In this document: positions 5,016 through 42,811 of the stretch, piece by piece
Layout: every line of letters begins with the position of its first letter
Numbering within the stretch: the stretch's first letter is position 1
Sequence record: OQ357823.1
Source: Escherichia phage CY1_Cui-2023
Length of the DNA: 43,449 bases
Strand: one strand, 5' to 3'
Translations under genes and position numbers: made by a program
Notes under the pieces: generated by a model
Seen by the model: the letters and a program-made list of their open reading frames with translations, nothing else
What the model was told of the DNA's origin: nothing
Database searches by the model: none

Positions 5016-5683
5016 CTTCTTTCCAGCAACGGCTTAATGTCGATACCAAGTTTATTCTCGATCAATCCTGCCAGTGCGTCAGTCTTCTCTTTAAGAGCGA
5101 AACATTGTGCTTCATACCTAAACCTTGCTTCCATTTCATCGGAACGTGATACCCAAGACTGCCGAGCTTCACAAGCGAGAAGGTCAAGCTTCTCGTCAAT
5201 GTTCTTATCCATAAGGAGGATTTCATTGATTCGCTGCTCCGCAACGATTCGCTGGCCAAGGTGAGCGTTCTGCGCATTAGCCACACCAAGCATCACGCGC
5301 GCTTCTTTTAGCTCATCAATACTCACCATCTGGCTGATTACTTCCGTTTGTTTGTTGATGGTGGACTGCATCTCTTTAAGCTTATTAAGAACCGCACGGC
5401 GAACAGACTTTGACTCACGCATTCCAACAAGAAGCATCTGTTCCATATTAAGCACTGGTGAGTTGATTGACTTTCTATAACCCCCTCTCCTCTCACTTTT
5501 GATTACGAAACTTTCGTAGTCAAACTCAAACCCCTCAAGCTCATCCTCTATCCTCTCAACAAAGTCATTGTGCCGAACATCAGATTCACCGGCAACTAAC
5601 CTCGCTGGGTTGATAACTTCATTCAAAAACTGATAACTGTTCATTTTTACATCTTCATTTAGTAGAGTTAGGTTCATTTTCAT
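5000..5683 (-). CDS. Rha-family phage regulatory protein (putative)
   Basis: N-terminal segment LNEVINPARLVAGESDVRHNDFVERI matches the Rha-domain pattern; track ORF begins with TTG at 5710, first in-frame ATGs at 5683/5677; start uncertain. Confidence 0.5.
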   Translation of the reverse strand: MKMNLTLLNEDVKMNSYQFLNEVINPARLVAGESDVRHNDFVERIEDELEGFEFDYESFVIKSERRGGYRKSINSPVLNMEQMLLVGMRESKSVRRAVLNKLKEMQSTINKQTEVISQMVSIDELKEARVMLGVANAQNAHLGQRIVAEQRINEILLMDKNIDEKLDLLACEARQSWVSRSDEMEARFRYEAQCFALKEKTDALAGLIENKLGIDIKPLLERSSTNS

Positions 5684-5782
5684 CTCTCTTCTGGTTTTTT
5701 CATGGCTCAAATCTGAGCCATCACTTTGGTTCCCAGCCTGAAATTTAGGTTGGATGACAGCACCATTGCCGCCACGCGCCTA

Positions 5783-5825
5783 AATATACCTAAAGATAGC
5801 CAGTTGTCTTTAGCAAATCGTGCTA
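5783..5825 (-). promoter_or_regulatory. dyad-operator promoter (TAGCA-cgatt-TGCTA) with -10 TATATT, for the Rha-like gene
   Basis: Dyad 5811-5825 read on minus strand; TATATT exactly 30 bp downstream (5788-5783). Confidence 0.5.
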
Positions 5826-5854
5826 TTTATCGACAATTTCACCATAAATCACAG

Positions 5855-6020
5855 TTACACGTAACCGATGTAACTCGATGTATACAATCTCATCCGCGGG
5901 AAATGATATACTCGCTGTTACGCCAATTTACGCATTGGTTACATTAAAATATCTATATATATCAACCTTTTACTCTTATTATTATTATTATATATATTAC
6001 TGTGTATATCATGTAACTAC
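5855..6020. repeat. intergenic control region with GTAAC/GTTAC motif cluster plus (TA)n and (ATT)5 microsatellites
   Basis: GTTACACGTAACCGATGTAAC, GTTACGCC, GGTTAC at 5862-5945; (TA)4-5 at 5953-5961; TTATTATTATTATTA at 5977-5991; CATGTAAC at 6010-6017; lies between divergent genes. Confidence 0.6.
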
Positions 6021-6511: not shown

Positions 6512-7477
6512 ATGAGCTTTAAAGTTTTTACGCGAGAGGAGCTAAGCAACGAGGCTTACCACGCTGAAACTGAACACATCTCAGGTAGCTCGCTTGTCGA
6601 GATTATCCAGGGATCACCAGCCAAGTGGAAGTTTAAGCAGCGCAACAATGATAGCAAGGCGCTTAAGTTCGGCACGCTAAGCCACACGATGATTTTAGAG
6701 CAAGATGTATTCGAAAAAGAATACCTTCGCGCAACAGACCTTGACTCGATTGAAGGCTTAATTACAAGTCAGTCTGGATTATCATCAGCACTTAAAAAAG
6801 TTGGTGTAGCTGGCACGTCAGGTAAGGGGTATAGCGAGCTTATAGAGATGATGTATCGATCTGGTGAGGATTGGCCCGTTGGATGGTTAATTGAGCAGCA
6901 GGAGAGCGCCCAGGCGCTTGCGGATGGTAAGGAGCTAGTTAGCGCAGTAGACTATGACAAGGTTGTAGCGATGCGTGAGGTCCTCTGCAACATTCCGGCG
7001 TATAATGCGATCGTGAACAGTAAGACGGCGCAGAAAGAGTTATCGATCTTCGGTGAGATTCTAGGAGTCGGCGTTAAGATTCGAATTGACCACGTTGATG
7101 TTGTTGATGGAGCAGTTCGGATCACAGATTACAAAACGACAGCAGACGCAAGCCCGGAAGGATTCGGTAAGTCAGCATTCAACCACGGATACCTTGCAAA
7201 AATGGCACTTCAGCGTGATCTGTTTGTGAAAGCATTCAACGAGAAGCGCAAGGTTGTTGTGGGGTTGCTGGCACAGGAGAAGGTGGAGCTATACTTACCA
7301 ATGCTGTACACCCTAACTGACGAACAGCTTCGCATTGGTCGTCTCCAGTATCTTGAGGCACTTGCCACTTACAAGAAGTGCAAGGAGCTAGATATCTGGC
7401 CTGGGTACTCGAACGGCATAACAGAGCAAGAACTACTAGTCCCTGAGTGGGCTCTAAAGCAATACAAAGAAATCTAA
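6512..7477 (+). CDS. PD-(D/E)XK recombination exonuclease (lambda Exo/YqaJ-like)
   Basis: Motif IDHVDVVDGAVRITDYKTT resembles the D...D/E-x-K nuclease core; SD AAGGGGTGAG; immediately upstream of erf. Confidence 0.65.
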   Translation: MSFKVFTREELSNEAYHAETEHISGSSLVEIIQGSPAKWKFKQRNNDSKALKFGTLSHTMILEQDVFEKEYLRATDLDSIEGLITSQSGLSSALKKVGVAGTSGKGYSELIEMMYRSGEDWPVGWLIEQQESAQALADGKELVSAVDYDKVVAMREVLCNIPAYNAIVNSKTAQKELSIFGEILGVGVKIRIDHVDVVDGAVRITDYKTTADASPEGFGKSAFNHGYLAKMALQRDLFVKAFNEKRKVVVGLLAQEKVELYLPMLYTLTDEQLRIGRLQYLEALATYKKCKELDIWPGYSNGITEQELLVPEWALKQYKEI

Positions 7478-7478
7478 A

Positions 7479-7521
7479 CAGCACGAATTGCTAAAACAAA
7501 ACGGGATGACTTAGGTATAGT
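7479..7521 (+). promoter_or_regulatory. dyad-operator promoter (CAGCA-cgaat-TGCTA) with -10 TATAGT
   Basis: Dyad 7479-7493; -10 at 7516-7521 exactly 30 bp from dyad centre; leader AATCAACAACGAACGAGG precedes ATG 7551. Confidence 0.55.
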
Positions 7522-7550
7522 TATCCAATCAACAACGAACGAGGTTAAAG

Positions 7551-8201
7551 ATGCAAATTTCAGAATTATGCAAATCAATTTTAAAAGCGCTTCACACTGC
7601 TAAATCGCTATTTGCGAAGGCTGAAAAGTCTAAGCAGAACTCTCACTTAAAGAATAAATACGCTACCTTAGAAGACGTTTTGGCGGCTGTTGAGCCTGGT
7701 TTATATGAGTGTGGTTTGGTGATGTTCCAGAGTGTGATTGATGACGAACAAACAAATCGCATGAAGGTCGAGACAAAGCTGTTTCATGTTGAATCTGGAG
7801 AGTGGGTAAGCTTCTTAATGATAGTCCCAATCAGCAAGAATGATGCACAAGGTTACGGATCAGCTTTAACATACGCTCGTCGCTACGGTATCACAGCTGC
7901 CTTGGGTCTTAGCCAGGCTGATGATGACGGAAATCTTGCAGCCAAAGGCGTTAAGGATTTCAAGCGAGAGCTAGAGAAATGCAATACTCTTGATGAACTT
8001 CGTAACGTCTGGAAAGAGGCTAAGCAGTCACTTGATGCGGCTGGATGGAAGGTTTTTGAACCTCACATTATCGAGCGAAAAGCAGAGATTGAGGCTAGTG
8101 CAATGACGGGCTTCAACCCAGCGAAACCTAAGCAGGTTGCACAAAAAGCTGTTCAAGAAGAAAAGGCTGAAGTACAATCTCAAGAAATCGATACATTCTA
8201 A
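7551..8201 (+). CDS. erf: Erf-family single-strand annealing protein
   Basis: YATLEDVLAAVEP and GSALTYARRYGITAALGL match the P22 Erf signature (..YARKY..). Confidence 0.8.
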   Translation: MQISELCKSILKALHTAKSLFAKAEKSKQNSHLKNKYATLEDVLAAVEPGLYECGLVMFQSVIDDEQTNRMKVETKLFHVESGEWVSFLMIVPISKNDAQGYGSALTYARRYGITAALGLSQADDDGNLAAKGVKDFKRELEKCNTLDELRNVWKEAKQSLDAAGWKVFEPHIIERKAEIEASAMTGFNPAKPKQVAQKAVQEEKAEVQSQEIDTF

Positions 8202-10187: not shown

Positions 10188-10252
10188 TGTAAAGTCTCCG
10201 TTTGTAAAATAGCACTAATTGATAAAATTCATTCTACCATCTTTCAGGCAAT

Positions 10253-10272: not shown

Positions 10273-11196
10273 TTAGTTTAGTAAGTCGTTGGCTTTGTAT
10301 ATTTTCTTGCGTATTCCTGTTTTAAATGACCTCCCGTCGTTAGGAATCACCACATCAACATTACGATCGTCAGCGACAGCGAGTATATCAGTATCACAAT
10401 CGCGGCAAGCAATCCTGAACCTTCTTGACCTGTCGCGGTGGATAACCATCTCCATATTGTAACAGGAGAAAGCAACAAACACCTCGCGACCCCCAGTAGC
10501 AAGGTGAACATGTACGCCATCAATGTAATTGTCGACAACATAAGTGTAACTATTATCCTGCCTAGAACCAATAACGTAAACAGAATCACGAGTGTAATCA
10601 CCAGCAAGGAACTTAACATTTGAATCCTCATCAATAAACATTACGTTACAAAACTCATCACCAAGCCCATCCTCATAAACCATAGAGCATGGGGTTGCGT
10701 GAATCATTGAACCATCCTTAGCGATACCAACATCAAAACCATCACTAAGGTAAATACCCTCGTATGTCGTGAGTGGACTTGATTCGACTCTCATGGTTCT
10801 CTCCATTACCTCCAGAACTTTCTCGTGGTCGACATGGGCACCCATTTTGTATCGCTGAGTTCTCGACGCTTGCTTGTTTGCTTTAACTATAACCTCAATT
10901 GGTGTTAAGTTCAGCCAGTCACCAAGCAAATTTACTGAATCGGCGAAGGACAATCCAGTGCACTTCATGACCCATCCTATACCTGTATCATTACCGCACT
11001 GACTGCAAATTGCAGCGCCATTACCTTTCTCGTTATTTAATTCATCAGTAAAACGAAACCTATCCTTACCAAAGCAGTAAGGGCATGGCCCGTGTTTCTT
11101 GCTAAGGTTTTCTTTTGTCCAGCCCATGTGAGATTCGTAAAACTTTGACCACATGCCCTTCATTTTTGACAAAACTTCATTCTTATCGTGATGCAT
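10273..11196 (-). CDS. DNA primase (zinc-ribbon plus TOPRIM-like)
   Basis: CPYC...CSQC zinc-binding motif near N-terminus followed by acidic TOPRIM-like region; position beside helicase. Confidence 0.6.
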   Translation of the reverse strand: MHHDKNEVLSKMKGMWSKFYESHMGWTKENLSKKHGPCPYCFGKDRFRFTDELNNEKGNGAAICSQCGNDTGIGWVMKCTGLSFADSVNLLGDWLNLTPIEVIVKANKQASRTQRYKMGAHVDHEKVLEVMERTMRVESSPLTTYEGIYLSDGFDVGIAKDGSMIHATPCSMVYEDGLGDEFCNVMFIDEDSNVKFLAGDYTRDSVYVIGSRQDNSYTYVVDNYIDGVHVHLATGGREVFVAFSCYNMEMVIHRDRSRRFRIACRDCDTDILAVADDRNVDVVIPNDGRSFKTGIRKKIYKANDLLN

Positions 11197-11236
11197 AAAA
11201 AAGCCCTCGCATTTAACTTGAGGGCATTATACATAC

Positions 11237-11719
11237 TCATTCAGATCTTTCTTTAGCTTTTCGTGCGGCTTCGTTGGCAATCTTATTCTTTCGCCATGGT
11301 CGACAGGGTGGCTTTGTTGCTAGTTCTGCATCGGTAACTACGCGAAGCATATGGCGCTTCTTGCATCGAAGTGTTAGCGGTTTTCCGTTTCCGTCGAATT
11401 GCAGGTCTGGTCGGCAGAATGTAGCTCGAAATCCCTCCTTATTTCGCTTGTACGCATTATGTGCTCGCTGAGCCCCTCGAGCCGAAATCATACCGCGGTT
11501 AAACCATTCCGATACAGCTTGGTTGGACACATTTAACTGCTTTGCGATGTTCGCCTTTGTACCGTAGAAATCAAGAACCATCTCCAGGCGAGCACGTAGC
11601 CCAGCCTTTACCTCATCTTTCAATACGTAGTAGCCTGATGGTCGTTTGCGTTGCTTTTTGTCTTTTGTGCGCACGGTTCCGTTATTGCCGTTAATAGTTC
11701 GCTTGTCGATTTCACACAT
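11237..11719 (-). CDS. putative HTH DNA-binding protein (Cro/YdaS-like), 160 aa
   Basis: Segment KQLNVSNQAVSEWFNRG resembles a helix-turn-helix recognition helix; basic N-terminus. Confidence 0.45.
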   Translation of the reverse strand: MCEIDKRTINGNNGTVRTKDKKQRKRPSGYYVLKDEVKAGLRARLEMVLDFYGTKANIAKQLNVSNQAVSEWFNRGMISARGAQRAHNAYKRNKEGFRATFCRPDLQFDGNGKPLTLRCKKRHMLRVVTDAELATKPPCRPWRKNKIANEAARKAKERSE

Positions 11720-11732
11720 CTCATTACCTCAA

Positions 11733-11774
11733 TAGCACTTTTTGTTAAACAATGGGTTCGATGGCTGTTATTAT
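11733..11774 (+). promoter_or_regulatory. dyad-operator promoter (TAGCA-ctttt-TGTTA) with -10 TATTAT, for helicase gene
   Basis: Dyad 11733-11747; -10-like hexamer 11769-11774. Confidence 0.5.
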
Positions 11775-11815
11775 ACATCAATGCAACGAACTAAAGAACT
11801 ATCAGGATATTTAAA

Positions 11816-13810
11816 ATGCTTCCAGTAGAACGCTTAGTGGCAAACTTTGACCAAGAAAAGATTAAGCAGATTCAGAGAGACTATCAGTTTGGAGATATTA
11901 CGCCGTATCCATTCCAGTGCGTGACATTCGACCAAATCGGCAAGAATATTGCTAAGTACGAAGCTCCGTTCATCGCAGACCTGTCTGTATCGGCTGGCAA
12001 GACAATCATTATTGCCATGATTGGTAAACGCATGGAGCAACTTGGCCTTCCTTATATGGTACTTTCTCGCCAGTCTGAAATTATCAGTCAGAACGCTGAA
12101 GAACTTCTCAACTTTGGCATTCGTAATAGCGTATATTGCGCTGGCCTTAACGTTAAATCAGTTTATTACCCAACCATAGTGGCTAGTGAAGGAACGGCTG
12201 CCAATGGATTGTTTAAGGGTCTTGGTGACTATGTTCCTGCGGTTATCGCAATAGATGAGGCACACATGGTGGACCACATGGATATCGTAGAAGCTGAAGA
12301 GAACGAAGAGACATTTGAGCAAATGAGCACCAAGAAAGGCGAAATGGTTTTCAAGGATGGAGTGAATACCGGATTGCTTGGAACTGGTCGTGCGCAGTAC
12401 ACACTAATCATCACTGAAATGAAGCGCCGCTGCAAAGAGAAGTATGGTCGCGAGCTCCGTATATTCGGCTTGACTGGTAGCCCGTATCGTAACAACGACC
12501 ACATTGTAGTTAGTAACCCAAATATTCGTGGCTTCTGGCGCAAGACGGTAATGCAAGTTCCGACCAGTTACCTGGTTGATTTGGGATTCGTTGTTCCAAC
12601 TGTTTACGGTGAGGTTGGTGATTTGGGTTATGACCTTAGCGAGTTTGCACCTGATGGAAGTGATGGCGTTAAGGATTTCAGCAAAAAAGAAATGGATGCA
12701 ATGGCTGCAAAGATTCACGAAAACCAGACGATGACACAAAAGATAATGGGGTTCGTTATCAAAATACTTGAAACACGTAACGCCGCACTGGTAACTTGCG
12801 CTGGTAAAATGCACTGCGATGAAGCGGCTGCTGCTCTACCCGATGGTTATCCTTACGCGATAATCACTGATTCCACTGGTGAGAAGAAGAGAAGGGAAAT
12901 TCTAGATGAATGCCAGACCGGAAAGTACAAGATTATTTTTCAGATTGGATGCTTAACCACAGGCGTTTCGGTGCCTCCGTGGGACACAAGTGTCATACTC
13001 CGCAAGATTGGAAGCCTGACATTAATGATTCAGCTTCTTGGTCGTGGAATGCGAATTCTCAAGAAGAAACATATTGAAATTGGTATGAAAAAGGATGACC
13101 ACTTAGTCCTGGACTTTGCTGGCGCACTTGATGATATGGCTGAACTTTACTTTGATCCAATAATTGAAGAGATTCAGGCCGAGAAGTTTAAGTCATCACG
13201 CAATGGTGATTCAGATGTTCGAGTGTGCCCAATTTGCTCATACGAGAATTCGCCTTTTGCTCGTAGATGCGGAAATAAGATTGACGGAAAGAGATGTGAG
13301 CACTTCTTTACTTTTACAGTTTGTGAAGATATTACAGACCTGCAGACAAAGGCTATTATCAAAAAAGGGTGCGGGACTCGCAATGATATAGCAGCGAAGG
13401 TCTGTCGAGAGTGCGGAGAGATGCTTAAAGACCCCAATGCTAACCTTACAGGTAAGATGTATCGTCGTGGTGATTACCTTCGTGTTTATGATTTTCAAGT
13501 TGGCTTAAGTAAGAATCAAACCGGAATTGTTGTTAAGTACAATATCATGGCTCATAACGGAGATCGGTTTAATGCATGGGAATTCTTCAACCCCGAGTCT
13601 GACCATCGAGTTTGCAGCGTGCTATGGAAGAACTTCTGCCTTGCTCATATAGAGAATCGCGCTGAAGCCACAAGAATTGGCAGACTTCGCAATGCGAGAA
13701 TGATTATGACGAACGTAGATAAGTTCCGCGCACCAGTGCAGGTTACACATAGAAAAAACGGCAAAGGTAAAGATATAATCGCTTTTAAGAATTTTGGAGA
13801 ATTGTTATGA
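11816..13810 (+). CDS. SF2 DNA helicase (DEAH-box) with C-terminal zinc ribbon
   Basis: Walker A-like SVSAGKT, DEAH box (IDEAHMV), C-terminal CPIC...CGNK...C...CRECG cysteine cluster. Confidence 0.75.
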   Translation: MLPVERLVANFDQEKIKQIQRDYQFGDITPYPFQCVTFDQIGKNIAKYEAPFIADLSVSAGKTIIIAMIGKRMEQLGLPYMVLSRQSEIISQNAEELLNFGIRNSVYCAGLNVKSVYYPTIVASEGTAANGLFKGLGDYVPAVIAIDEAHMVDHMDIVEAEENEETFEQMSTKKGEMVFKDGVNTGLLGTGRAQYTLIITEMKRRCKEKYGRELRIFGLTGSPYRNNDHIVVSNPNIRGFWRKTVMQVPTSYLVDLGFVVPTVYGEVGDLGYDLSEFAPDGSDGVKDFSKKEMDAMAAKIHENQTMTQKIMGFVIKILETRNAALVTCAGKMHCDEAAAALPDGYPYAIITDSTGEKKRREILDECQTGKYKIIFQIGCLTTGVSVPPWDTSVILRKIGSLTLMIQLLGRGMRILKKKHIEIGMKKDDHLVLDFAGALDDMAELYFDPIIEEIQAEKFKSSRNGDSDVRVCPICSYENSPFARRCGNKIDGKRCEHFFTFTVCEDITDLQTKAIIKKGCGTRNDIAAKVCRECGEMLKDPNANLTGKMYRRGDYLRVYDFQVGLSKNQTGIVVKYNIMAHNGDRFNAWEFFNPESDHRVCSVLWKNFCLAHIENRAEATRIGRLRNARMIMTNVDKFRAPVQVTHRKNGKGKDIIAFKNFGELL

Positions 13811-15425: not shown

Positions 15426-16559
15426 ATGACAGTAGCAAAGATTACCAACGATCAGCTAATCGAAGAACTTAAAAACGGCATGACTAACAAGGCGATTGCG
15501 GAGAAGTACGACATGAACATTCGCAACGTTGAACTTCGTCGCAGTAAGTTAGCTAAGAGTGGTTTGTTTGGGCATGGCAATGATGGTATCAAGAAGTTAG
15601 TGCCGGACGGCTATTTAGTCAAGGGTACTTCAACCATGATTGATGCGGATGGGAATGAGAAGCTGCGCTGGGTTAAGACGAGCGTTGATAATGAACGCCT
15701 TGAAATTATGCTCGAGCAAGCGCGAGAGGCTTTCTGTTCTGAGTTGCCAAAGTGTGAGGAAGTTAAGCATTCAGGCAAAGATACAAACCCTGACCTAATG
15801 ACACTGTATCCAATTTTCGACATACATATTGGAATGATGGCCCATCGCCACGAGTCTGGTGAAAATTATGACACGGCAACGGCAGAAAAACTAATGGGCT
15901 CATACTTTGACCATGCAATATCAGTTTCGCCAGCTTCAGAAAAGGCAGTCATCCTTGTTGGCGGTGATTATCTCCACTCAGATGGTCTTGAGGCGGTAAC
16001 TCCAGCTAGTGGCCACTGCCTTGACCAAGATAGCCGTTACGCTAAGTTAGTCTACATCGCAATTAGATCAATTCGTGGCGCTGTAGAAAAGATGCTTAAA
16101 AAGCATAAAAGTGTTGACATTCAAATTATCGAGGGAAATCATGACCAAAGCGGCATGATCTGGCTTCGGGCTGCGATGGCTGCATTTTATGAAAATGAGA
16201 GTCGTGTCTTTGTTGATGTAAGCCCTGCGATTATGCACAAGACAAGATTTGGCTCAACACTACTTGGCTACACTCATGGTCACACAATGAAGAAAGCGGA
16301 AGGTAGACTTGCAGCTATGGCAACCGATTACAGGAAAGACTTTGGTGAATGCGAGTTCGTTTATTGCCATTCCGGGCATTTTCACCACGCAACAGTAACA
16401 GAGTGCACTCTTGGTATTGACGAAGTACATCCAGCACTAGCAAGCAAGGATGCGTATGCAGCACGAGGGGGGTGGCGCTCATATCGTCAGGCTGCCGCGA
16501 TTGTTTATCACAAAGAGTTTGGCGAGGTTGGTCGTCATATCTATCGACCTGGAATGTAA
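15426..16559 (+). CDS. calcineurin-like metallophosphoesterase with N-terminal HTH-like extension
   Basis: Motifs DIHIG, GGDYLHSDG, EGNHDQ, GHT, GHFHH in the canonical metallophosphatase order; N-terminal ~120 aa contains TNKAIAEKYDMNIRNVE; AGGA SD before ATG 15426. Confidence 0.65.
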   Translation: MTVAKITNDQLIEELKNGMTNKAIAEKYDMNIRNVELRRSKLAKSGLFGHGNDGIKKLVPDGYLVKGTSTMIDADGNEKLRWVKTSVDNERLEIMLEQAREAFCSELPKCEEVKHSGKDTNPDLMTLYPIFDIHIGMMAHRHESGENYDTATAEKLMGSYFDHAISVSPASEKAVILVGGDYLHSDGLEAVTPASGHCLDQDSRYAKLVYIAIRSIRGAVEKMLKKHKSVDIQIIEGNHDQSGMIWLRAAMAAFYENESRVFVDVSPAIMHKTRFGSTLLGYTHGHTMKKAEGRLAAMATDYRKDFGECEFVYCHSGHFHHATVTECTLGIDEVHPALASKDAYAARGGWRSYRQAAAIVYHKEFGEVGRHIYRPGM

Positions 16560-16563
16560 TAAA

Positions 16564-16606
16564 TAGCACTTTTTGTTAAGAAATCCCAGAGAAATCTGGG
16601 TATATT
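16564..16606 (+). promoter_or_regulatory. dyad-operator promoter (TAGCA-ctttt-TGTTA) with -10 TATATT
   Basis: Dyad 16564-16578; hairpin CCCAGAGAAATCTGGG in the spacer; -10 16601-16606; leader AATCAAACACAAACGAGATGG. Confidence 0.55.
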
Positions 16607-16636
16607 AATCAAACACAAACGAGATGGTAAACAAAA

Positions 16637-17185
16637 ATGAAACAACTATATTCAATGATAAAAAAATCAATTAACAATGACTTCAAAGGTAAGCCAGTTT
16701 ATATTTTTGATTATGACGGAACGCTTTCTGACGGGGCTCACAGACTTGATAAGCTCCCAAAAACTGACCCTCACCTTACCGAGTCGTGGATTGAGTTTAA
16801 CTCACTAAGCAGATTTGATTCTCCATTTAATGATACGATAAGCGTAATGAATTCGCTTTATGATAGCGGCGCATACATAATCATTTTAACAGGAAGGTCT
16901 GATCATGTTCTAGATGAGTCACTTGATTGGCTTACTAAAAATGGATGCAAATACAACGTAATGGTAATGCGATCAGCTTCGGACAACAGGAAGGATACGA
17001 TAATTAAAGAGGAATTCTTAAATTCAATTGGGATTGAAAGAATTACGGCGGCCTGGGATGATAGCCCGAATGTAATAAATCACTTTAGGTCTCTAGGGAT
17101 AACCACTTATCAGGTTTGTGATTATGGTTATAATGTTCACAGCGGCCTTAAATCTCATGGTGTAGAAAATCTGAATTCTAAATAA
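16637..17185 (+). CDS. HAD-superfamily phosphatase
   Basis: HAD motif I FDYDGTLSDG near N-terminus; downstream Thr/Lys/Asp motifs in HAD order. Confidence 0.6.
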   Translation: MKQLYSMIKKSINNDFKGKPVYIFDYDGTLSDGAHRLDKLPKTDPHLTESWIEFNSLSRFDSPFNDTISVMNSLYDSGAYIIILTGRSDHVLDESLDWLTKNGCKYNVMVMRSASDNRKDTIIKEEFLNSIGIERITAAWDDSPNVINHFRSLGITTYQVCDYGYNVHSGLKSHGVENLNSK

Positions 17186-17234
17186 ATAAAATCAATGGGG
17201 TTTTAAATGGCCCCATTAAAATTGAGTAAATAAA

Positions 17235-17789
17235 ATGAAAAAGTTAATCATCCTTAATGGACCCCCAGGTGCTGGAAAAGATACAGTTGCAGATATCATT
17301 GTTAAACTTGGAATTTGCAAGGATAAGGTTTCTTTCAAATCACCTATGTTTAATGTGGCTAAGAGCATGCTATCAAGCGATGAGTTTGATGGATTTATTA
17401 AGAATTACGATGATCGAGAGTACAAAGAATCACCACATGAATTTCTTGGTGGAATGACTGTTCGTCAATTTATGATTTGGATTAGCGAATCAGTGATGAA
17501 GCCAGTTTTTGGTGATGAGGTTTTCGGTAAAAGGCTAGCTCAGTCTCTTGGCAATGGTTGCCACATCTGTTCAGATGGTGGATTTGCAAGTGAAATTGAG
17601 CCACTAATTGAAAGTGGTGTTGAGGTTACATTGGTTAGGCTTCATAGACCTGGTTACACTTTCGAAGGAGATAGTAGGTCATACATTAGCGGCCTCTGCG
17701 CAAGGGAAATTGATATTGATGTTATTGAAGGTGATATTAAAATAACTACAGAAAAAGTGATTGATGCAATAAATAGCACGAATCGCTAA
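17235..17789 (+). CDS. deoxynucleoside monophosphate kinase (T4 gp1-like P-loop kinase)
   Basis: N-terminus KKLIILNGPPGAGKDTVADII and internal VTLVRLHRPG parallel T4 dNMP kinase. Confidence 0.6.
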   Translation: MKKLIILNGPPGAGKDTVADIIVKLGICKDKVSFKSPMFNVAKSMLSSDEFDGFIKNYDDREYKESPHEFLGGMTVRQFMIWISESVMKPVFGDEVFGKRLAQSLGNGCHICSDGGFASEIEPLIESGVEVTLVRLHRPGYTFEGDSRSYISGLCAREIDIDVIEGDIKITTEKVIDAINSTNR

Positions 17790-17847: not shown

Positions 17848-18021
17848 ATGACTAAACTATACTGCGTGAAAAACAACTCAAAGACGCTTCCGTTTACTGA
17901 GAATCAGCCATACAGCGGCGAGCATCTTGGTAGCGGTTACTACAAGATTTATGGCGACGATATGACTCACATCCTTGCGCCGATTGATGGCTCTTTGGTG
18001 GAATTTATTATCGCAGATTAA
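17848..18021 (+). CDS. hypothetical small protein, 57 aa (below ORF-track cutoff)
   Basis: ATG 17848 with SD AGAGGA; translation MTKLYCVKNNSKTLPFTENQPYSGEHLGSGYYKIYGDDMTHILAPIDGSLVEFIIAD. Confidence 0.4.
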   Translation: MTKLYCVKNNSKTLPFTENQPYSGEHLGSGYYKIYGDDMTHILAPIDGSLVEFIIAD

Positions 18022-22599: not shown

Positions 22600-22643
22600 A
22601 TTATGGTCCCGTCGCCAATGTTTGTCATTAGCAAAAAGTGCTA
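22600..22643 (-). promoter_or_regulatory. dyad-operator promoter (TAGCA-ctttt-TGCTA) with -10 CATAAT
   Basis: Dyad 22629-22643 on minus strand; CATAAT (reverse complement of 22600-22605); leader ATCAACAACGAGGAGAGAGAT before ATG 22572. Confidence 0.5.
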
Positions 22644-22660
22644 TTCGTTGGGTTTATGTA

Positions 22661-25901: not shown

Positions 25902-25977
25902 GTTCTGCTGGCGTAACAGGATAACGCAAAGACCTCCTAAGTCTTAGTTGCTGGTTCGAGTCCAGCGCGGAACACCA
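25902..25977 (+). tRNA. tRNA-Arg (anticodon CCU)
   Basis: Hand-folded cloverleaf: acceptor GTTCTGC/GCGGAAC (one G-U), D-arm GCGT-AACAGGATA-ACGC, anticodon arm AAGAC-CTCCTAA-GTCTT (CCT at 25936-25938), T-arm GCTGG-TTCGAGT-CCAGC, discriminator A plus encoded CCA; 76 nt. Confidence 0.8.
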
Positions 25978-26298: not shown

Positions 26299-26823
26299 AT
26301 GAAAGACGAAAACTTCACCAGCCAGGCGCAAGAAAAGATTCGCTCTGGCAACTTCAAAGCCATGTACAACAAAAAGTATTCTGACATTACAACTCTGTCC
26401 AAAAACCGAATAATGACCCCAGAGCAGCTATTCGACCTGGCCGTGAAATACTTCTCATGGGCTGAGAGCCAGGCAATCAAGGCAATTGAGACAGCCAGCT
26501 TCCAGGGTGTCGTAACCGAGAATCTGGTGCACAAGCCACGAGTCTTCACACTAACAGGATTCTGCCTTTACTGCGGTGTTACCCATAGCGCAATAGAGAA
26601 ATGGAGGAAGTCGGCGGGTTATGACGAGGTAATTGCATTCATTGATTCCGTGATTCGCGAGCAGAAGTATCAGCTGGCAGCGTCTGGCATTGTTAACCCT
26701 GGCATGATTTCCAAAGAACTTGGCATCGATAAGCCGCAGGAGATTACTATAAGCAATAACTCTTCAGCTAACGACGTTGGCACGATGAAGGAAGCGCTGG
26801 AGTCTGTGATTAGTAAGCTGTAG
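26299..26823 (+). CDS. terS: terminase small subunit
   Basis: 174-aa ORF with strong SD AAAGGAGG, positioned immediately upstream of the HNH and large terminase genes. Confidence 0.6.
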   Translation: MKDENFTSQAQEKIRSGNFKAMYNKKYSDITTLSKNRIMTPEQLFDLAVKYFSWAESQAIKAIETASFQGVVTENLVHKPRVFTLTGFCLYCGVTHSAIEKWRKSAGYDEVIAFIDSVIREQKYQLAASGIVNPGMISKELGIDKPQEITISNNSSANDVGTMKEALESVISKL

Positions 26824-26862
26824 CACTTTTTGTTAAAAGAAGAGGCCCAATCAATGAGATAA
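26821..26862 (+). promoter_or_regulatory. dyad-operator promoter (TAGCA-ctttt-TGTTA) with -10 GATAAT, upstream of HNH gene
   Basis: Dyad 26821-26835 overlaps terS stop; -10-like GATAAT 26857-26862 sits in the loop of hairpin GGCCCA...TGGGCC. Confidence 0.45.
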
Positions 26863-36375: not shown

Positions 36376-36379
36376 TTGA

Positions 36380-36422
36380 TAGCACTTTTTGTTAAAGACG
36401 TGTGGCAGGGATTTGCTATTAT
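36380..36422 (+). promoter_or_regulatory. dyad-operator promoter (TAGCA-ctttt-TGTTA) with -10 TATTAT
   Basis: Dyad 36380-36394; -10 36417-36422; leader ATCGAAACGAGATGG before ATG 36462. Confidence 0.5.
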
Positions 36423-42026: not shown

Positions 42027-42052
42027 GGTCAATCGAGAGATTGGCCTTTTTT
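42027..42052 (+). terminator. hairpin plus T-run fused to SD (CCTTTTTTATTGGAGAC)
   Basis: GGTCAATC-GAGA-GATTGGCC followed by TTTTTT and GGAGAC before ATG 42065. Confidence 0.5.
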
Positions 42053-42064
42053 ATTGGAGACAAA

Positions 42065-42811
42065 ATGCTAACACCAAAAGTTAAATTAGAAATCATGCGC
42101 CACGCCAAAGAGGATTACCCTAATGAATGTTGCGGAGTAGTAACCCAAAAAGGTATGGCTCAGAAGTACCATCGAATCACTAACACATCTAAAGACCCTG
42201 AGAATGAATTCATTCTTGATGCCAGTGGGTACATGAAGATTAGCGATGAGGAGCGAGTTGTGTACATTGTCCACTCACACACTGGAGATGGGGCCACCAC
42301 CAGACCTAGTCCAGCAGATATATGCAGTTGCAATGAGTGCGAGATTCCTTATGTAATTGTTAGTTACCCTGAGGGTGATATGCGAATCCTTGAGCCAGAG
42401 GACATGCCGTTAGCAGGAAGGCCATGGGGTTTGGGTAGCTTTGATTGCTGGGGGTTGATTATGGCATTCCACGCAAAACACGGCGTCAAACTGGCTGACT
42501 ACCGCGTTAATTACCCGTGGTGGAACAAGGAGTATGGTGAAAATATATATGATGACAATTGGATTAATGAAGGATTTGAGCTACTAGAAACTGATGATAT
42601 TCCTGTTGGCTCCATGATTATGATGCAGATTCAAAGTGAGACCACGAATCACGCAGGAATCTATATTGGCGATAACAAATTCTTGCACCATCTTTACGGG
42701 AAGATGAGTAAAGTTGATACCTATAGTGATTATTGGCGCGAGCGTACGGTTCGCATTGTTCGCCACAAAGATTTACCAGAAGGAGCAAACTACAATGCAG
42801 AGACTGATTAA
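42065..42811 (+). CDS. tail assembly protein (lambda gpK-like; JAB/MPN plus NlpC/P60)
   Basis: JAMM-type HSHTGDGATTRPSPAD motif and downstream Cys/His segment (FDCWGLIMAFHAKHG); ATG 42065 has SD GGAGAC (track start 42041 is TTG). Confidence 0.8.
   Translation: MLTPKVKLEIMRHAKEDYPNECCGVVTQKGMAQKYHRITNTSKDPENEFILDASGYMKISDEERVVYIVHSHTGDGATTRPSPADICSCNECEIPYVIVSYPEGDMRILEPEDMPLAGRPWGLGSFDCWGLIMAFHAKHGVKLADYRVNYPWWNKEYGENIYDDNWINEGFELLETDDIPVGSMIMMQIQSETTNHAGIYIGDNKFLHHLYGKMSKVDTYSDYWRERTVRIVRHKDLPEGANYNAETD

Follow-up and report, generated by a model that had tools for sequence, protein, structure and literature searches.

The window analyzed here is the whole 43,449-nt stretch of Escherichia phage CY1_Cui-2023 (sequence record OQ357823.1). 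By nucleotide identity we assign it to a Drexlerviridae (Braunvirinae) coliphage: the 3-kb region around the genes described below is 99.6-99.7% identical to Escherichia phages TR1, TR2, TR3, and Rao1, and 78-88% identical to other Braunvirinae (Drexlerviridae, T1-like siphophages). Nearby genes run in the order helicase, VRR-NUC nuclease, five small ORFs, the genes that we call P1, P2, and P3, a DUF7244/SH3 ORF, holin, endolysin, and u-spanin. A first-pass annotation had placed three consecutive genes for phospho-transfer enzymes within 15426-17789, and all three ORFs were found there:

15426..16559, + strand: P1, HTH-fused metallophosphoesterase (MPE), PHROG 704 "DNA repair exonuclease" (377 aa)
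16637..17185, + strand: P2, stand-alone HAD phosphatase of the Pnkp phosphatase-domain type (182 aa; the start may be Met7 at 16655)
17235..17789, + strand: P3, T4 gp1-like P-loop (d)NMP kinase (184 aa)

The trio is already annotated in near-identical GenBank records, which name P1, P2, and P3 "DNA binding protein," "polynucleotide kinase," and "ATPase," respectively; the T1 record carries HHpred-based names. An Rfam scan returned a tRNA as its sole match.

The metallophosphoesterase and its N-terminal extension

P1 carries the five MPE motifs (DxH, GDxx[DH], GNH[DE], H, and GHxH), here D132-x-H134, G180-D181, N238-H239-D240, H284, and G317-H318-x-H320, and these vary little or not at all across 60 aligned homologues. 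Invariant positions are D132, H134, G180, D181, N238, H239, H284, G317, and H320, together with T192 and D200 of a family-specific segment, VTPxSGHxLDxDxR. An AlphaFold2 (AF2) run with the 60-sequence alignment gave a model (pLDDT 92.2, pTM 0.82) with the MPE alpha/beta sandwich fold. P1 is thus, as first annotated, a member of the calcineurin-like metallophosphoesterase superfamily, with all five catalytic motifs intact. Its features are distributed as follows:

15447..15560, + strand: three-helix HTH, residues 8-45 (sigma-70 region 4 / LuxR / Fis-like; AF2 model)
15612..15740, + strand: conserved beta-hairpin (PxGxxVKGxSTLY..DG....QWVKT) plus helix, residues 63-105 (alignment, AF2)
15786..16544, + strand: MPE catalytic core, residues 121-373 (AF2 model, alignment)
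15816-15833, + strand: motif I
15960-15983, + strand: motif II
15996-16037, + strand: family-specific VTPxSGHxLDxDxR segment
16131-16148, + strand: motif III
16272-16286, + strand: motif IV
16371-16388, + strand: motif V

Sequence models are weak for this family. Pfam gives Metallophos_2 at E 0.009, with 16.4 bits for Metallophos/Metallophos_2 (below the gathering cut-off of 27), and PF00149 is matched at E <= 0.01 by 12 of the 60 homologues. Searches of PDB sequences, NCBIfam, and PADLOC produced nothing useful, only a FixJ HTH (E 1.9) and PdeM (E 0.003). The match to PHROG 704 runs end to end (E 2e-147), and by sequence P1 is assigned to this very large phage and prophage family. When 1.84 billion 50%-identity representatives were searched exhaustively with HMMER, 4,649 relatives came out at E <= 1e-3, most of them 370-420 aa long and 1,061 of them at E <= 1e-30. 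In BFVD the fold is found in many other phages, none with a characterized function, and literature searches for an experimentally characterized family member found none; the papers on Avs2/Ksap1 and on escapers do not deal with the P1 gene.

The extension of ~120 residues is predicted to consist of an HTH and a second conserved module. In the AF2 model, a three-helix bundle (residues 8-45; helices 8-16, 21-27, and 32-45) is followed by a disordered linker (46-55), a long beta-hairpin (63-87), and a helix (89-105), and the MPE core begins at residue 121; block-mean pLDDT is 81 over the first ten residues and 93-97 thereafter. HTH sequence models match the window protein itself weakly (GerE at E 0.18, besides FixJ). 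Among the 60 family members, Pfam finds HTH_8 in nine, HTH_1 in eight, Sigma70_r4_2 in seven (best E 1.2e-6), and GerE in four; the variable N-termini also match HTH_23/28/38, KorA, and a NUMOD-like model, and a 64%-identical homologue carries a precomputed PF08281 match. From the modeled bundle and the HTH matches across the family, we take the HTH-like extension noted in the first-pass annotation to be real. The fusion had also been called unexpected. It is not: an HTH plus the hairpin module is the standard architecture of the P1 family and is not peculiar to the window phage. Searched on its own, the hairpin/helix module matched just six short proteins (66-104 aa) that show no further catalytic domain, and therefore gives no evidence of its fusion to other catalytic domains.

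The modeled structure of P1 most resembles the DNA nucleases PolD-DP1, Mre11, and SbcD. The suggestion that P1 is a nuclease of the Mre11/SbcD type thus stands as far as fold likeness goes, and fails on two accompaniments of such enzymes. P1 lacks the capping domain of Mre11/SbcD (and of T4 gp47 and T5 D12), because its MPE core runs to the C-terminus (residue 373 of 377 in the AF2 model); and annotation shows neither a Rad50/SbcC-like nor a DP2 partner, whether in the ~13 kb of TR3 surrounding the trio or across the complete T1 record. P1 further differs from Mre11/SbcD in having its own N-terminal HTH and beta-hairpin, a motif II of the form GDxxHxD, and the extra invariant VTPxSGHxLDxDxR segment. 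Compared with the PolD small subunit DP1, a 3'-5' proofreading exonuclease, P1 is without the DP2 catalytic partner, shares 12% sequence identity, and occurs in phages with and without a polymerase of their own (none is annotated in T1; one is present in K1H and in a KP34-like phage). A fused tri-helical HTH is the usual DNA anchor of DNA enzymes (transposases, resolvases, homing endonucleases), and since P1 joins such an HTH to a nuclease-like fold, we infer that its substrate is DNA. Mycobacteriophage A10ZJ24 Gp48, likewise a phage MPE with five motifs, has phosphodiesterase activity and disrupts host genomic DNA (PMC12287305); it offers a functional precedent, with likeness at the superfamily level. 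Its motif I lies at about residue 10, and hence, unlike P1, it has no N-terminal HTH extension.

Promoter-like elements and the role of the HTH

Several putative regulatory features lie between and after the three genes:

16563..16605, + strand: promoter-like element between P1 and P2 (from repeat counts and a -10-like hexamer)
16563-16579, + strand: 17-mer ATAGCACTTTTTGTTAA in this element
16585-16600, + strand: dyad CCCAGAgaaaTCTGGG in the promoter spacer
16600-16605, + strand: -10-like TATATT
17194..17217, + strand: hairpin AAUGGGGUU-loop-GGCCCCAUU between P2 and P3 (-12.8 kcal/mol, z -2.2)
17774..17785, + strand: TAGCACGAATCG box, a variant of the promoter-associated element, at the end of P3 and upstream of the SH3/lysis genes

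The 17-mer ATAGCACTTTTTGTTAA is present in seven copies in the window versus 0.32 expected, and a variant, TAGCACGAATTG, in eight versus 0.19. Most copies of the 17-mer have a -10-like hexamer 21-23 nt downstream and then a gene start. No canonical copy was seen directly upstream of P1. Copies of the element lie between P1 and P2 and at the P3 end, so that P2-P3 probably form a separate transcription unit with its own promoter. T1 has 13 copies of the 17-mer, one of them right after its P1 homologue.

The first-pass annotation had made P1 a candidate for the factor binding dyad operators. More broadly, P1 could be a transcription factor whose HTH recognizes promoter elements or dyads and sets when middle or late (lysis) genes are expressed, the MPE domain being a sensor or accessory. 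Its HTH is sigma-70 region 4 / LuxR-like, the over-represented promoter-associated motif in the window has no assigned binding factor, and, according to the passages covered of the KanT1 paper, the lysis cassette comes immediately after P1 in most Drexlerviridae (PMC13164509). Nevertheless, we hold this reading to be highly improbable. The dyad after P1 has a different sequence in SU57 and L062, with pairing kept, whereas P1 residues 17-44 differ at a single position among these two phages and the window phage; moreover, a scan of the window for repeated perfect dyads found only terminator hairpins. On both counts we rejected P1 as an operator-binding factor. The ATAGCACTTTTTGTTAA-type motif is itself non-palindromic, and the 17-mer is absent from the complete K1H genome and from the partial PP99, Era103, and S2 loci, despite a similar P1 HTH in these phages. 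A varying dyad, a constant HTH, and the lack of the 17-mer in the K1H, PP99, Era103, and S2 sequences argue, indirectly, against P1 reading these elements. The invariant catalytic motifs of P1 also speak against a regulator, and the phage has other HTH regulators, e.g., a homologue of the T1 C2-like repressor. Regulation of late genes, as the pre-lysis position might suggest, was rejected because that position is not conserved: in K1H and the Autographiviridae, P1 is away from the lysis genes.

The phosphatase, the kinase, and the recurrence of the trio

The short motifs that identify the two downstream enzymes are:

16706-16726, + strand: DxDGT motif of P2 (HAD motif I)
17259-17285, + strand: P-loop of P3, GPPGAGKDT

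P2 scores 61.4 bits against Pfam HAD_PNKP (PF25109; gathering score 27.6) and displays the HAD motifs FDYDGTL (residues 24-30, HAD motif I), ILTGRS (83-88), RKDT (118-121), and WDDSP (140-144), confirming the HAD phosphatase recognized earlier from FDYDGTL. Among solved structures it comes closest to the phosphatase domains of Pnkp1 (4xrp) and T4 Pnkp (pseT; 1ltq, 5uj0), to whose residues 208-307 and 204-298, respectively, it aligns, and it shares the DxDGT nucleophile motif with T4 Pnkp. T4 Pnkp is bifunctional, whereas the 182-aa P2 aligns to the phosphatase domain only; no P-loop is visible in the P2 sequence. The label "polynucleotide kinase" is therefore an over-annotation of P2, which lacks the kinase domain. 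P3 has a P-loop NMP-kinase fold, and its best structural match is the T4 gp1 dNMP kinase, in agreement with the initial description. hhalign against T4 gp1 aligned residues 3-39 alone (the first ~37; E 2.6e-4, probability 42%), and P3 has 184 aa against 241 aa for T4 gp1 / T5 Dnk.

The relationship of P2 to Pnkp raises an alternative in which the trio is a DNA/RNA end-healing cassette: P1 would trim, P2 would remove 3'-phosphates, and P3 would phosphorylate 5'-OH ends, a split Pnkp letting a ligase reseal host-cut phage nucleic acid. Many records annotate the pair as "kinase-phosphatase," and in PP99 and Era103/S2 a DNA ligase gene follows the kinase. We judge such a cassette decidedly improbable. 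Unlike in T4 Pnkp, the neighboring kinase is structurally gp1-like, not Pnk-like, and P2 plus P3 as a split T4 Pnkp was rejected for this reason.

Homologues of the three proteins are widespread. In a tblastn search of 50,697 phage records, P1 was found in 2,015, P2 in 1,659, and P3 in 1,445, with overlapping host distributions. Pectobacterium phage PP99 (Autographiviridae) has the order 5'-3' exonuclease, endonuclease VII, P1 homologue, HAD, dNMP kinase, and DNA ligase, its P1 homologue being full-length with the HTH included (hhalign probability 100%, E 5e-121); Erwinia phages Era103 and S2 likewise combine this trio with a ligase gene. In Kagunavirus K1H (Guernseyvirinae), P1-HAD-kinase forms an inverted island inside the tail gene cluster, and the K1H record points out that its three ORFs resemble those of Era103 and T1. 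In Klebsiella phage vB_Kpn1-P3 (KP34-like) and Aeromonas phage LAh5, the same HAD and kinase families follow a different MPE (PHROG 221, 325 aa, with an N-terminal extension of about 95 aa). Among 80 kinase-anchored IMG/VR loci, the order P1>HAD>kinase occurs in 29 and PHROG 221-MPE>kinase in six. Conservation of the order in Kagunavirus and some Autographiviridae argues for a functionally linked, mobile cassette.

Proteobacterial genomes, searched with a 10-sequence alignment subset, provided 54 fetched loci, with the P1 gene called in 48. Here P1 homologues sit among DnaB, DnaC, NinB, NinG, integrase, lysis, or terminase genes, and these neighbors suggest that the loci are prophages. In 10 of the 48, a PHROG 139 kinase is encoded no more than five called genes away from P1; no HAD gene was found near the P1 homologues of these apparent prophages.

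The Drexlerviridae arrangement is itself on record. The passages covered of the 2026 KanT1 paper (PMC13164509) describe the same locus as the window trio, in the order DNA repair exonuclease - (PNK - dNMP kinase) - (SH3) - holin - endolysin - spanin, and propose a nucleotide-supply role for it. There the exonuclease (P1) is persistent, in 508 of 522 Drexlerviridae genomes, and PNK and dNMP kinase often follow it, only in a subset, as shell genes; the kinases occur together with SH3 in only seven phages of that survey, and the window has both, with SH3/DUF7244.

Several observations would suit a lack of functional coupling, P1 being a core recombination/replication nuclease and the HAD and kinase independent accessory genes in a permissive replication-lysis slot. 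Besides the persistent/shell distinction, T1 carries HAD and kinase, split by an HNH gene, at 4.9-6.5 kb in the left-end early region, and P1 at 40.8 kb beside the lysis genes. In 39 of the 80 IMG/VR loci, HAD>kinase lie within about 2 kb of each other with no P1 within 4 kb. The P2-P3 pair has a promoter element of its own, HNH homing genes insert between the trio genes, and alleles are mosaic (identity to SU57 is 91% for P1, 42% for P2, and 77% for P3). The separation in T1, the mosaic alleles, and the restriction of HAD and kinase to a subset of Drexlerviridae argue that the trio is not obligately coupled. However, three unrelated lineages, K1H with its inverted island among them, share this order of the three families; the MPE at the same position in KP34-like phages is non-orthologous; and a dNMP kinase recurs near P1 in the proteobacterial loci. 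We regard complete independence as doubtful. The interpretation given in the first-pass annotation, a nucleotide-pool remodeling module, is partly supported.

A possible route from DNA to nucleotides

The analysis shows which domains the three proteins carry, that their catalytic motifs are intact, how their folds are related, and that the synteny extends across lineages; every substrate, what the HTH does, and a connection with the destruction of host DNA are inferred. Tentatively, and at somewhat less than even confidence, we suggest that the trio is a loosely coupled, horizontally mobile cassette for DNA-to-nucleotide salvage, with a flow DNA -> dNMP -> dNDP and 3'-end cleaning. P1 would be a nuclease, structurally of the Mre11/SbcD/PolD-DP1 class, that uses a divalent metal (probably Mn2+); its own HTH, and perhaps the beta-hairpin too, would tether it to DNA and stand in for a Rad50/SbcC partner. 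Its target DNA, most plausibly the host chromosome, would be degraded or trimmed, with release of 5'-dNMPs. P2, a presumptive Pnkp-type HAD 3'-phosphatase, would dephosphorylate DNA 3'-ends, or 3'-nucleotides, that stand in the way of exonuclease and polymerase. P3, as a gp1-like kinase, would convert dNMPs to dNDPs, and host NDP kinase could then supply dNTPs for phage replication. Parallels exist in T4, where gp46/47 and the Den nucleases feed gp1, and in T7 gp3 and gp6. Salvage by the trio fits the host-DNA degradation and nucleotide reuse documented for T1 and TLS. The abundance of P1 in apparently temperate elements suggests that at base it may instead serve recombination or the processing of replication ends, salvage having been elaborated in particular lineages.

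In a bolder form, which we think improbable, the trio would be a self-contained mobile three-enzyme pathway in which the HTH-MPE is the host-chromosome nuclease of T1-like phages, its products being channeled into phage dNTPs, and the cassette might also remove 3'-phosphorylated or modified nucleotides that host immunity could sense. If so, Mre11-like enzymes would gain a new functional class, that of MPE nucleases tethered by an HTH and independent of Rad50.

Nucleotide chemistry by an MPE and a HAD enzyme does occur in phage-host conflict: a host calcineurin-CE + HAD pair forms a two-step dNTP-degrading cascade triggered by m6-dAMP from degraded host DNA. By analogy, the trio could serve counter-defense, destroying signaling or modified nucleotides or rebuilding dNTP pools against depletion-type or nucleotide-sensing immunity; genes for YfbR-like proteins or dATP/dGTP diphosphohydrolases lie near P1 homologues in several further proteobacterial loci. 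This we consider very unlikely, as the HTH fusion and nuclease-like fold point to DNA as the substrate, and no sequence link joins the trio to Calcineurin-CE or PADLOC models.

The gene arrangement is ordinary in kind. To what is already on record we add the structure-based dissection of the P1 N-terminal extension, the family size, the negative evidence on operator binding, and the recurrence of the trio across phage families, including displacement by a non-orthologous MPE; recurrence outside Drexlerviridae is not mentioned in the passages covered of the KanT1 paper (PMC13164509). Were the salvage model true, it would name the enzyme behind T1-like host DNA destruction and nucleotide reuse and show how an Mre11-like nuclease works without Rad50, by its own DNA-binding domain. 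The P1 family numbers thousands of 50%-identity representatives, is present in 2,015/50,697 phage records, and bears seven or more conflicting database names; one biochemical characterization would therefore correct many annotations, and those to be corrected include "polynucleotide kinase" on the kinase-less HAD protein.

Repeated elements at putative promoters and gene ends

The non-palindromic 17-mer ATAGCACTTTTTGTTAA occurs seven times in the window, against an expectation of 0.32:

10209-10225, 11732-11748, 16563-16579, 26820-26836 and 36379-36395, + strand: 17-mer copies
5810-5826 and 22628-22644, - strand: 17-mer copies

Most copies are followed, 21-23 nt further on, by a TATAAT-like hexamer and then by a gene start, and the 17-mer covers about -51 to -35 relative to these putative promoters; this placement suggests an UP element or a site for an activator. 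T1 carries 13 copies, and none was found in the complete genome of Kagunavirus K1H or in the partial loci of the Autographiviridae phages PP99, Era103 and S2.

We also observed a variant box, the 12-mer TAGCACGAATTG, eight times in the window (0.19 expected), with two of the eight copies overlapping 17-mer sites. It is placed at gene ends, ahead of the next transcription unit, for instance after VRR-NUC and after the dNMP kinase gene P3:

7479, 14224, 17774 and 24248: 12-mer positions
21229 and 21822, - strand: 12-mer positions

Within the spacer of the promoter-like element 3' of P1, the HTH-fused metallophosphoesterase gene, lies a hairpin (window 16585-16600) with equivalents in SU57 and in the related phage locus L062. 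Its pairing is kept among these relatives while its sequence varies (arms CCCAGA/TCTGGG, CCTCAA/TTGAGG, TGCCGT/GCGGCA and AGCCGC/GCGGCT). The hairpin may form the 3' end of the upstream transcript, set within the next promoter.

Alleles and insertions at the locus

Identity to the SU57 counterparts is 91% for P1 and 77% for P3, but only 42% for the HAD phosphatase P2 (16637-17185), which is nearer to alleles of Klebsiella and Citrobacter T1-like phages (64-65%). Judged by these identities, the P1, P2 and P3 alleles are mosaic inside one subfamily. The locus also appears to be an insertion hot spot for homing genes, to go by the HNH genes found there:

L062:2820-3560: unannotated HNH homing endonuclease-like ORF between P1 and HAD, with the promoter element duplicated
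T1 5465-5959: annotated HNH gene between HAD and kinase
T1 42028-42510: annotated HNH gene directly 3' of P1

Many Drexlerviridae dNMP-kinase homologues (P0171, P0204, P0213 and P0226, for example, in alignment A2 of P3 homologues) have a C-terminal tail ending in EWxDD-IPW; the window P3 is without it. This ending is similar to DDDIPF, the acidic tip at the C-terminus of bacterial SSB, and the tail might bring the kinase to replication proteins that bind SSB.

The cassette in other phages and neighboring genes

In KP34-like and Ahphunavirus podophages, a 325-aa PHROG 221 metallophosphoesterase occupies the P1 position ahead of HAD and dNMP kinase genes (L057:3018-3995, L059:982-1956). Its motif I lies near residue ~99, after an N-terminal extension of ~95 aa, and its presence in the P1 slot looks like non-orthologous displacement. 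K1H carries the P1-HAD-kinase cassette with a 108-aa ORF (10442-13000, - strand), inverted within its tail-gene cluster; the N-terminus of this ORF is hydrophobic and signal-peptide-like, and the arrangement resembles a moron island. Dhillonvirus SECphi18 (LT960609) encodes a P1 homologue at 6616-7734 (43.5% identity). Ksap1, the trigger of KpAvs2, has been described as adjoining a 'phosphatase' gene.

Two further window genes were identified:

17848-18021, + strand: 57-aa ORF, DUF7244 (stand-alone SH3), match E 8e-27
25902-25977, + strand: tRNA-Arg (anticodon CCT), Rfam 59.3 bits, ARAGORN in agreement

The 57-aa ORF corresponds to the lysis-associated protein described for the Drexlerviridae phage KanT1 in PMC13164509, according to which the DUF7244/SH3 gene is rarely found together with HAD and kinase genes (seven phages).
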